Positions 36,508-36,830 of a stretch of 38,574 nt of DNA are shown piece by piece. The notes below the pieces were generated by a model. It did no database searches. It was not told the DNA's origin and saw nothing but the letters and a program-made list of their open reading frames with translations. Each line of letters begins with the position of its first letter. Position 1 is the first letter of the stretch. Source of the DNA: an uncultured Clostridia bacterium (GTDB lineage: Bacteria > Bacillota > Clostridia > TANB77 > CAG-508); assembly GCA_944392065.1 (NCBI GenBank), contig CALXVO010000001.1, forward strand, positions 1 through 38,574, read 5' to 3'. A program made the position numbers and the translations under genes.

Positions 36508-36530
36508 GCCCCCCGCAATTTGCGGGGGGC
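36508..36530 (-). terminator. Strong G/C hairpin (GCCCCCCGCA-aau-UGCGGGGGGC) ending the mini-ORF unit; no U tract
   Basis: The 10-bp perfect stem is nearly all G/C. It lies 15 nt after the mini-ORF3 stop and about 30 nt before the ctsR -35. Confidence 0.55.
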
Positions 36531-36545
36531 AAGGAATATTGCTTA

Positions 36546-36578
36546 TTAAACGAATCCTACAGGATACCGCATTCTCAC
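36546..36578 (-). CDS. Mini-ORF3, 10 codons: (GTG)M-R-M-R-Y-P-V-G-F-V
   Basis: GAAGGAGGAG lies 8 nt upstream of a GTG start. It has the same length as mini-ORF2 and the same xxxRYxxGFx pattern. Confidence 0.3.
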   Translation of the reverse strand: MRMRYPVGFV

Positions 36579-36629
36579 TGCGTTGTCTCCTCCTTCTTGC
36601 CTAGTTAGGCTCGGTTTTTATGTTCGTTT

Positions 36630-36662
36630 TTAGGTAAACCCCGTAGTATACCGTGCTCCCAT
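36630..36662 (-). CDS. Mini-ORF2, 10 codons: M-G-A-R-Y-T-T-G-F-T
   Basis: GGAGGAGGA lies 8-9 nt upstream of the ATG. It is paralogous to mini-ORF3. Confidence 0.3.
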   Translation of the reverse strand: MGARYTTGFT

Positions 36663-36698
36663 CGGTTAGTTCCTCCTCCGGCTTAGTGCCAGCTGGTA

Positions 36699-36752
36699 TC
36701 ACATCTCTTTTTTAACATTACTCTTCGTACGTTTTTGCATAAGCATAAGCAT
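36699..36752 (-). CDS. Mini-ORF1, 17 codons: MLMLMQKRTKSNVKKEM
   Basis: AAGGAGGA lies 8 nt upstream of the first ATG. The MLMLM part is encoded by a (CTTATG)x3 hexamer repeat (complement of 36737-36757). Confidence 0.3.
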   Translation of the reverse strand: MLMLMQKRTKSNVKKEM

Positions 36753-36801
36753 AAGCAATTTCCTCCTTCTTATATTTTGCTTGTTATCAAGCACTATAAA
36801 C

Positions 36802-36830
36802 ATTATACCACAAGCTTCTGGTTATGTCAA
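36802..36830 (-). promoter_or_regulatory. Perfect consensus sigma-A promoter with extended -10 (TTGACA-17-TGgTATAAT)
   Basis: On the minus strand, TTGACA is the complement of 36825-36830 and TATAAT the complement of 36802-36807, with TG at -15/-14. The promoter starts 10 nt after the stop of the 71-aa ORF. Confidence 0.65.

Follow-up and report, generated by a model that had tools for sequence, protein, structure and literature searches.

Introduction

The dual-function small RNAs (sRNAs) of the Firmicutes, such as RNAIII/hld of S. aureus, SR1/SR1P of B. subtilis and Pel/sagA of S. pyogenes, carry open reading frames (ORFs) of 26-53 codons, and the leader or arrest peptides ErmCL, ErmBL, CatA86L, TnaC and MsrDL are encoded by 5-25 codons led by a Shine-Dalgarno (SD) sequence. 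Directly translated bacterial micropeptides include MccA, the heptapeptide of microcin C, PatS of Anabaena, and SpfP, and the 5' stabilisers of Gram-positive mRNAs comprise 5'-terminal stem-loops and the STAB-SD sequence of cryIIIA. Bacterial genes of about ten codons escape gene callers, and very few are known to give functional products. Here we describe a compact unit, situated between a 71-aa ORF and the ctsR-mcsA-mcsB-clpC genes of an uncultured Clostridia bacterium (assembly GCA_944392065.1, contig CALXVO010000001.1, positions 1 to 38,574; this whole stretch of 38,574 nucleotides is called the window below), in which two paralogous decapeptide ORFs, ORF2 and ORF3, look like real micropeptide genes.

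Among described systems, the unit works most like the dual-function sRNAs (RNAIII, SR1) and the directly translated micropeptide genes, and it is a member of no curated family. With the dual-function sRNAs it shares a strong promoter of its own, a 3' hairpin, pairing between its 5' and 3' regions and embedded SD-led small ORFs, but these ORFs have 10 codons rather than 26-53 and come in two paralogous copies; there is no sequence or Rfam similarity to these RNAs, and the unit is restricted to a few uncultured gut Clostridia. For a structured sRNA that bears a small ORF, the peptide is unusually short, duplicated and conserved at the codon level. As with MccA, PatS and SpfP, the predicted product has ~10 residues, a short conserved motif and no leader or signal sequence; unlike MccA, it has no C-terminal Asn and no MccB-like partner, and there are no modification or export genes among the neighbours. 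The unit resembles the leader and arrest peptides in that its ORFs are very short, are conserved C-terminally near the stop, are followed by a hairpin and lie upstream of another operon, but ctsR has its own promoter and operator and usually no unit, the copies are in tandem, no anti-SD pairing for the downstream gene was found, and no resistance or metabolic gene is attached. Finally, like the 5' stabilisers, the unit opens at its very 5' end with a hairpin, after which comes an SD-like AAGGAGG that probably does not serve to make a conserved protein, and by this comparison it may have a stabilising role, although its SD-like sequence, unlike STAB-SD, is paired over a long range with the 3' end and is not free for 16S rRNA.

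The unit has a covarying architecture, more translation signals than shuffled sequence, a core motif conserved at the codon level and a patchy distribution. On balance, the peptide motif Y-[PT]-x-G-F-[VIT] appears to be the most conserved entity at the locus, and the unit most probably encodes tiny peptides rather than serving as a ctsR switch. More specifically, we favour, at about an even chance, a stable small mRNA, possibly also a dual-function sRNA, that would encode tandem micropeptides. The locus combines conservation of a 6-7-residue motif, tandem duplication, strong expression signals and a dedicated, covarying RNA scaffold. If the peptides are real, they would be a clear addition to the catalogue of small proteins and dual-function RNAs, from abundant uncultured gut Clostridia, and the fixed position by ctsR-mcsAB-clpC is a testable lead to a partner; if they are not, what remains is a new family of structured sRNAs, whose unusual closing helix hides an SD. 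The narrow distribution limits the immediate impact.

Organisation of the unit

Coordinates are positions in the whole stretch, and both the unit and ctsR are on the minus strand. A preliminary description of the window had listed a consensus promoter, a G+C island, three SD-led mini-ORFs and a G/C hairpin, all of which were found on that strand as located. The unit consists of the following features:

36830-36802, minus strand: sigma-70-type promoter TTGACA-17-TGgTATAAT (score 12/12, with an upstream TG extension; TTGACA at 36830-36825, -10 at 36807-36802)
36794-36778, minus strand: 5'-terminal hairpin GUGCUUG-AUAA-CAAGCA(A), from minimum-free-energy folds
36768-36751, minus strand: 5' strand of the closing helix P1, AAGGAGGAAAUUGCUUAU, which contains SD1 and reaches the ORF1 start codon
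36752-36699, minus strand: ORF1, MLMLMQKRTKSNVKKEM, which includes three CTTATG repeats at 36755-36738
36705-36630, minus strand: unit A, with the hairpin CUGGC-ACUAA-GCCGG at 36692-36678, SD2 GGAGGAGG at 36679-36672, and ORF2
36662-36630, minus strand: ORF2, MGARYTTGFT
36622-36546, minus strand: unit B, with the hairpin GCCUAACUAGGC at 36610-36599, SD3 GGAGG at 36593-36589, and ORF3
36578-36546, minus strand: ORF3, (V/M)RMRYPVGFV, with a GTG start
36546-36531, minus strand: 3' strand of P1, AUAAGCAAUAUUCCUU, which shares its first base with the ORF3 stop and runs up to the terminal hairpin
36530-36508, minus strand: terminal G/C-rich hairpin GCCCCCCGC-AAAUU-GCGGGGGGC, with a stem of 9-10 bp that is almost all G/C

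Transcription would start near 36795, and the predicted transcript, between the promoter and the G/C hairpin, has a length of ~290 nt. The G+C content is 45-49% across 36500-36750 and 17-34% in the flanks. Each of the three ORFs has a GGAGG 9-10 nt before its start codon. In total there are four SD-led starts in 297 nt, a number reached in 0 of 5000 dinucleotide shuffles; for comparison, the whole 38.6-kb minus strand has 28.

Conservation of ORF2 and ORF3

We compared ~100 related ctsR loci from uncultured gut Clostridia, labelled L001 and so on. A CtsR-based scan of one genome per GTDB species yielded 80 reference loci (labelled Clostridium sp. CAG:273, Candidatus Merdicola and similar, with one complete chromosome of 1.7 Mb), and further lineages were sought by contig look-ups through variants of the 71-aa ORF. 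Among the contigs returned, L201-L207 are strains of the window species and L226-L231 are strains of the L001 species; the others are an RNA variant (L214-L216), a locus with the peptide only (L232) and several empty sites. By nucleotide similarity L001 is the sole carrier of the unit, with 70% identity over 317 nt, though its CtsR is 95% identical. L004 has a more distant version, with a canonical terminator at its end and another insert before ctsR.

Units A and B can be aligned in both the window and L001, as an internal duplication of an ~80-nt module that consists of a hairpin, an SD and a 10-codon ORF. ORF2 reads MGARYTTGFT in the window and MEERYTTGFV* in L001, with synonymous changes at T6, T7 and G8, and ORF3 reads VRMRYPVGFV and VKMRYPAGFV*, with synonymous changes at P6 and V10 and a TAA to TAG change at the stop. 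The start codon type, the 10-codon length and both stops are therefore kept in the two ORFs, and 8 of the 14 substitutions between them fall at third codon positions. When substitutions were placed at random, the probability that both frames are kept was 0.056, that the R4-Y5-G8-F9 core is kept in both ORFs 0.006, and that at least five codon changes are synonymous 0.037. The alignment of ctsR-upstream regions that the preliminary description had proposed thus finds the 10-codon frames and the core kept in L001, with changes mostly at third positions, and its hypothesis of a tandem micropeptide locus is the best supported of its proposals for ORF2 and ORF3, whose frame, start, stop and R-Y-x-x-G-F residues are kept in L001, but not for ORF1 (see below).

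Across all six copies of the ORF, the minimum numbers of changes at the first, second and third codon positions are 5/4/11 (p = 0.038), and for the six core codons 3/2/9 (p = 0.017). The core Y-[PT]-x-G-F-[VIT] is found in four lineages and is directly followed by the stop in five of the six copies; conservation sits in the final 6-7 codons, with variable N-termini. In a six-frame translation of ~0.6 Mb of related loci, mini-ORFs of the form Y[PT]xGF[VIT]-stop occur at this locus only. Within species there is little variation to be seen: unit A does not vary across six strains, no polymorphism was seen in ORF2 or ORF3 among the six window-type strain contigs L201-L206, and the L001-type contigs that reach through the ORFs are identical except for one single-nucleotide polymorphism (SNP) in a hairpin in L230.

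The micropeptide hypothesis gains further from the presence of Y-P-x-G-F-[VI] in L004 and L232, in different nucleotide contexts. L004 has a single ORF, MKYYPTGFIRPKKFLN*. For the conservation of the peptide L232 is the most informative sequence: here the ORF, ATGATTAATATAGAAAGAAAGTTGCAGTATCCAGCAGGTTTTATCTAA (that is, MINIERKLQYPAGFI*), begins 5 nt past the stop of the 71-aa ORF, with a terminator downstream, in an AT-rich context without a separate promoter and without the G+C-rich RNA scaffold. Over the last nine codons it differs from ORF3 of L001 at six sites, of which four are third-position sites (three synonymous codons and the stop), one is a conservative I/V change and one falls at a variable residue.

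The RNA scaffold and its closing helix

The transcript is predicted to fold into an unusually stable structure. The window sequence folds at -88.8 kcal/mol (z = -4.66; 0 of 200 shuffles were as stable), and in a repeat of the test the z scores were -5.1 for the window, -5.8 for L001, -4.6 for L004 and -6.1 for L214, with none of 150 shuffles as stable. An architecture of 5' hairpin, P1, variable interior and terminal G/C hairpin is common to all four, and each has a promoter laid out like that of the window. The 5' hairpin is almost identical in L001 and L214, and L004 has an analogous one.

P1 is predicted to enclose the two paralogous ~80-nt modules, with the 16 nt before the 3' hairpin pairing with the region after the 5' hairpin. 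We matched the 26 nt just 5' of the terminal hairpin to the best partner in each variant. In the window this pairing has an energy of -16.6 kcal/mol, compared with a median of -6.2 for shuffles, of which 4 of 1000 were as good. In all four variants the best partner lies at transcript positions 29-35, with energies of -15.6 to -22.0 kcal/mol compared with medians of -4 to -6; no more than 4 of 1000 shuffles did as well. The paired strands are:

P1 in the window: 5' AAGGA..AUUGCUUAU, 3' AUAAGCAAU.UUCCUU
P1 in L001: 5' AAGGA..UUGUUuAUGCU, 3' AGCAUuAACAA..UUCCUU
P1 in L004: 5' UAAGG..AAUGCUGU, 3' ACAGCAUU..CCUUA
P1 in L214: 5' GGUAGG..AUACGCUUU, 3' AAAGCGUAU..CCUACC

Because the strands differ in sequence between variants yet pair in each, P1 covaries.

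The terminal hairpin begins 15 nt past the ORF3 stop and lies 29 nt before the ctsR -35 (36478). As the preliminary description had noted, it stands just upstream of that -35 and is without a U tract: its stem-loop is of the kind found in intrinsic terminators, but no U tract stands 3' of it in the window, where GAAUUCAUGGG comes next and a scan for terminators found none. The hairpin is the same in L001. Since the equivalent hairpins of L004 and L214 are followed by U runs (U6 and UUCUUUU, respectively), the terminal hairpin of the family is a terminator, with a U tract that is degenerate in the window and L001.

P1 also bears on ORF1. SD1 and the ORF1 start, which make up its 5' strand, are predicted to be largely paired: the ORF1 start codon has an unpaired probability of 0.26 in the window and of 0.03-0.26 across predictions. 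The copy number of the CTTATG hexanucleotide varies among strains of the same species (by +6 and +3 nt in L202 and L205), and a 1-nt deletion shifts the end of ORF1; indeed, in the strain alignment the polymorphism of the unit in the window species is confined to the ORF1 segment. ORF1 of L001 is MLAQNRTSFNKKRNMQNVL, with little identity past the first residues. As the repeat number and the end vary, and as the ORF is reduced to ML* in L004 and is absent from L214, ORF1 is probably not a conserved peptide, and it is best read as a structural strand of P1 or, at most, a translated spacer. We also note that the CTTATG variation, which falls inside the ORF1 and P1-proximal segment, resembles slipped-strand variation.

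A conserved scaffold of this kind raises the alternative of a purely non-coding structured sRNA, in which the GGAGG motifs and short frames would be incidental or serve at the RNA level (in binding ribosomes or proteins, as stabilising SD-like elements, or in pairing with targets) and no functional peptide would be made. The very stable, conserved architecture with its covarying P1 would be expected of such an RNA, and SD1 and ORF1 are demonstrably structural. However, L232 keeps the peptide ORF and not the RNA frame, third-position changes are in excess, both stops survive a TAA to TAG change, and SD-start pairs are enriched beyond shuffles; in addition, no Rfam family matches. We therefore consider an RNA without a peptide unlikely. 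The preliminary description had included a structured sRNA with untranslated G-rich motifs among its proposals, and of this the conserved covarying architecture and the placement of SD1 in P1 hold good, whereas ORF2 and ORF3 look like peptide genes from their codon-level conservation.

Several observations nevertheless weigh against a peptide gene. L214 keeps the promoter, the 5' hairpin, P1 and the terminator but has no ORF of the ORF2/ORF3 type, which shows that the RNA frame does not require the peptide. Eight codons follow the motif in L004, where it is thus not at the C-terminus and where the ribosome-binding site of the ORF is predicted to be paired. RNAalifold proposes a 13-bp helix between ORF2 and ORF3, in which L001 has one pair compensated and three broken; the small hairpins around the start codons are closed by CGG Arg codons; and an AUCC-NNNN-GGAU pairing is possible inside the ORF3-type copies, although this hairpin is lost in the ORF2-type copies and in L232 while the amino acids are kept. 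Part of the conservation of ORF2 and ORF3 could thus be at the RNA level. The codon-position statistics are modest (p ~0.02-0.04), as they come from four independent lineages only, and selection may be weak, given that most relatives are without the unit and that one strain of the window species carries a down-mutation in the -10.

In L214 (1760-1985) the promoter and 5' hairpin are almost exactly those of L001 and the P1 sequence is different, while the AT-rich interior holds no more than a 3-codon minigene (GGAG..AUGAUAAGUUAA); this interior has apparently been swapped, cassette-like, within a conserved frame.

Relation to the ctsR operon

Downstream of the unit, and outside it, are the control elements of ctsR:

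36478-36451, minus strand: ctsR promoter TTGACA-16-TATAAT (score 12/12)
36440-36419, minus strand: CtsR operator GGTCAAAGAAAGTCAAAGTCAA

This promoter and the operator (GGTCAAAGAAAGTCAAAGTCA) are kept in 80 of the 80 reference loci, with or without the unit. The unit itself is present in 2 of them and a related variant in one, and the remaining 77 are without any such unit; over all loci, it is present in four lineages only. L217 is particularly clear, in that its 71-aa ORF is 94% identical and the upstream sequence nearly identical, but there is no unit and only a terminator precedes the ctsR promoter.

These data bear on the proposal, made in the preliminary description, of a translation-sensing attenuator of ctsR-mcsAB-clpC, or more generally on cis-acting leader or arrest peptides, in which stalling at Y-P-x-G-F-V-stop would remodel P1 or the hairpin and so tune read-through into the operon. 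Some features would suit such a leader: a short SD-led ORF does stand upstream of a terminator hairpin, as it does in L001, L004 and L232, so that a hairpin or terminator follows the peptide ORF in every lineage; the conserved codons cluster just ahead of the stop; and the ORF3 stop of the window shares a base with the 3' strand of P1, close to a hairpin that lacks a U tract and is itself close to the ctsR -35. However, ctsR has an autonomous promoter and operator and would not depend on read-through, nor does it co-occur with the unit (77 of 80 loci, and L217, are without it). The distance from the ORF3 stop to P1 varies, with a 41-nt insertion in L001, and L004 has a canonical terminator, an extra insert before ctsR and eight codons past the motif. 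In the folds made (minimum-free-energy and ensemble), P1 stands beside the hairpin and does not compete with it, and these folds, which were not a systematic search for alternatives, gave no antiterminator. The tandem duplication also suggests product dosage more than sensing. We thus regard cis-acting peptides as quite unlikely and the attenuator as unsupported, so that the earlier interpretation is partly supported, for a micropeptide locus and a structured RNA and not for control of ctsR.

Distribution and neighbourhood

The usual gene order is HPF, SASP, HAD hydrolase, 71-aa ORF and ctsR-mcsA-mcsB-clpC. The slot between the 71-aa ORF and ctsR is hypervariable, and in other species it holds unrelated inserts such as MITE-like elements, repeats and insertion sequence (IS) fragments; in ~0.6 Mb of related sequence, the unit was seen only at this slot. 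From its patchy occurrence and the hypervariability of the slot, the unit is therefore an accessory gene, polymorphic for presence and absence at a fixed locus, and outside the conserved control region of ctsR.

In such a hotspot the unit might also be a decaying or neutral insertion that has no function at present, for instance what is left of a mobile or recombined cassette. Its presence and absence are patchy even among close relatives, the same slot holds unrelated inserts elsewhere, and L202 combines a mutated -10 with indels in ORF1. Neutrality is difficult to reconcile, however, with a promoter, SDs, ORF frames and P1 that are kept across lineages only ~70% identical in nucleotides, or with the identity of the L001-type unit across the metagenome contigs that cover it, bar the one hairpin SNP. 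Nor is there a match in the plasmid and phage collections: blastn against plasmids gave no match to the unit, against phages only a 40-nt AT-rich chance match to Campylobacter phages, and the unit is at one locus only in the sampled sequences. We hold a functionless insertion to be highly improbable. Among strains of the window species (L201-L207) the unit promoter is kept, save in L202, where (2723-2755) the -10 has changed from TATAAT to TCTAAT and ORF1 has indels; in this strain the unit may be decaying. A metagenome scan with the tandem pattern (GGTATNCNNNNGGNTTY twice) gave, among the matches listed, unrelated marine and soil tandem repeats and no related sequence.

Comparison with known families

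At Rfam 15 gathering thresholds there is no match anywhere in the window, be it to RNase P, T-box, riboswitches or known Clostridiales or gut motifs, in keeping with the earlier remark that the unit fits no known RNA family; at E values up to 10, only sub-threshold chance matches to the terminal hairpin appear. The L001, L004, L214 and L232 loci likewise have no Rfam match. ARAGORN found no tRNA or tmRNA, and from these results identities as tmRNA, 6S or SRP RNA were rejected. A retron ncRNA was rejected since there is no reverse transcriptase gene. A type I toxin-antitoxin system was rejected because the peptides have 10 aa and are not hydrophobic or membrane-like; no convergent consensus promoter for an antisense RNA is found on the opposite strand within the unit. 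A type III system was rejected as well, since the gene that follows the two ~80-nt modules is ctsR, with its own promoter. MccA was rejected because the peptides end in V, T or I and the neighbours are HPF, SASP, HAD hydrolase, the 71-aa ORF, ctsR, mcsA and mcsB.

As regards the dual-function sRNAs, the unit has its own promoter, a 3' end and a stable conserved structure, and its small ORFs bear the marks of purifying selection, with modest statistics (p ~0.02-0.04). With regard to a CsrB/RsmZ-type sponge RNA for CsrA, there are ~10 GGA motifs in 297 nt (counted by eye), roughly as estimated from the composition of the unit, and only some are in loops. A crude target scan with RNAduplex against 31 translation-initiation regions of the window gave no outlier. 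Full-text searches of the literature library turned up nothing relevant on the peptide motifs, including Y-[PT]-x-G-F-[VIT], or on sRNAs upstream of ctsR.

A possible mode of action

We propose that the strong constitutive promoter drives an independent accessory small gene with a transcript of about the predicted length. The main role of the fold would be to stabilise the RNA, through the 5' hairpin, the 3' hairpin and the end-to-end P1 helix, and P1 would also keep the SD1/ORF1 region silent. ORF2 and ORF3 would be translated into MGARYTTGFT and MRMRYPVGFV, and these peptides would be the selected product; the RNA might in addition be a riboregulator, and hence a dual-function sRNA. Most likely, the peptides would work in trans, each as a short linear motif acting on a partner in the cell. 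Since the position of the unit between the 71-aa ORF and ctsR-mcsA-mcsB-clpC is constant, the 71-aa protein or the Clp/McsB machinery may be named, speculatively, as candidate partners.

That the decapeptides act in trans as a Y-P-x-G-F-Phi short linear motif on this adjacent proteostasis system, with the RNA doubling as a riboregulator, is a long shot; were it so, the peptides may be among the shortest directly translated functional gene products of bacteria. For instance, the motif could mimic the hydrophobic-Gly-Phe loop with which Clp ATPases dock on ClpP; the likeness is of 2-3 residues only and is a lead, not a result. The ClpC loop of this organism reads KNVLGFSQ. Alternatively, the target of the motif could be McsB, the N-domain of ClpC or the conserved 71-aa protein, or the peptides may represent a new class of termination-arrest peptide.

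The 71-aa ORF itself (36840-37055, minus strand) precedes ctsR in most of the retrieved loci whose sequence reaches that far. Its C-terminal half is strongly conserved (KYGEFISSYFAWLTPERQKKRAKEIDDMTK) and there are 324 homologues. The protein matches no Pfam or NCBIfam family, and its AlphaFold model, of low confidence (pLDDT 58), has two helices and a disordered middle.

Similar mini-ORFs in viral sequences

Viral sequences were scanned for the 10-codon SD pattern, with 0 matches, and with relaxed patterns, which gave 11-15 stretches each, numbers that are compatible with chance. A manual tally of in-frame to out-of-frame matches in two of the relaxed scans came to ~4:6, as chance predicts, and 4:1. 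Two phage-like contigs that are unrelated to each other (L235, 396-425, plus strand, and L240, 5510-5539, minus strand; G+C 56% and 49%, respectively, with flanks that are not homologous) contain SD-led mini-ORFs for an identical peptide, MREYPTGFI*, and are the sole such pair in IMG/VR. The two mini-ORFs differ solely at five third-codon positions and the stop. That of L240 lies just upstream of an 82-aa ORF which, by eye only, we take to be ribbon-helix-helix-like. The relation of these peptides to those of the Clostridia is uncertain.

Other elements at the locus

A short G+C-rich repeat, GGGACAGRYC, occurs clade-wide, often in 2-3 copies ~36 nt apart (L010, 2358-2439; L218, 1089-1172). Where checked, it was intergenic, as in the spacer that separates the HAD hydrolase gene from the 71-aa ORF, and it looks like a REP-like dispersed element; the window has it once (37262-37271, minus strand), with 0.02 expected. 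An element of ~140 nt (...TTGGAGCGCTTAAGGTGGGGACCGACAAGTTTACAAACTG...GGGGGCCGGAAA...) with inverted ends of the AGAAGAAGTATATATTTTTT type looks MITE-like and is present upstream of ctsR in two species, L004 (2650-2790, plus strand) and L012 (minus strand), the L012 copy lying ~200-420 nt upstream of the ctsR operator in the orientation opposite to that of L004. In L036 and L037 the region ~100-270 nt upstream of the CtsR operator, in the slot that follows the 71-aa ORF and precedes the ctsR promoter, holds a G+C-rich insert of ~150 nt bounded by an inverted repeat (GCATAGCGATATAA/TTATATCACTATGC).

At ~2050-2070, L215 and L216 diverge from L214 exactly at the ctsR -35, where CTATTGACA becomes CTATGTCAATAG, a palindrome, followed by unrelated DNA; either the sequence has been inverted or rearranged at the ctsR promoter, or the assembly is at fault. 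Finally, the public gene calls of L226-L231 fail under code 11: the product continues past the TAG that ends the 71-aa ORF, giving spurious 95-aa products that run into the unit promoter, and there are spurious antisense ORFs across the unit. These calls seem to have used a code with TAG as a sense codon.

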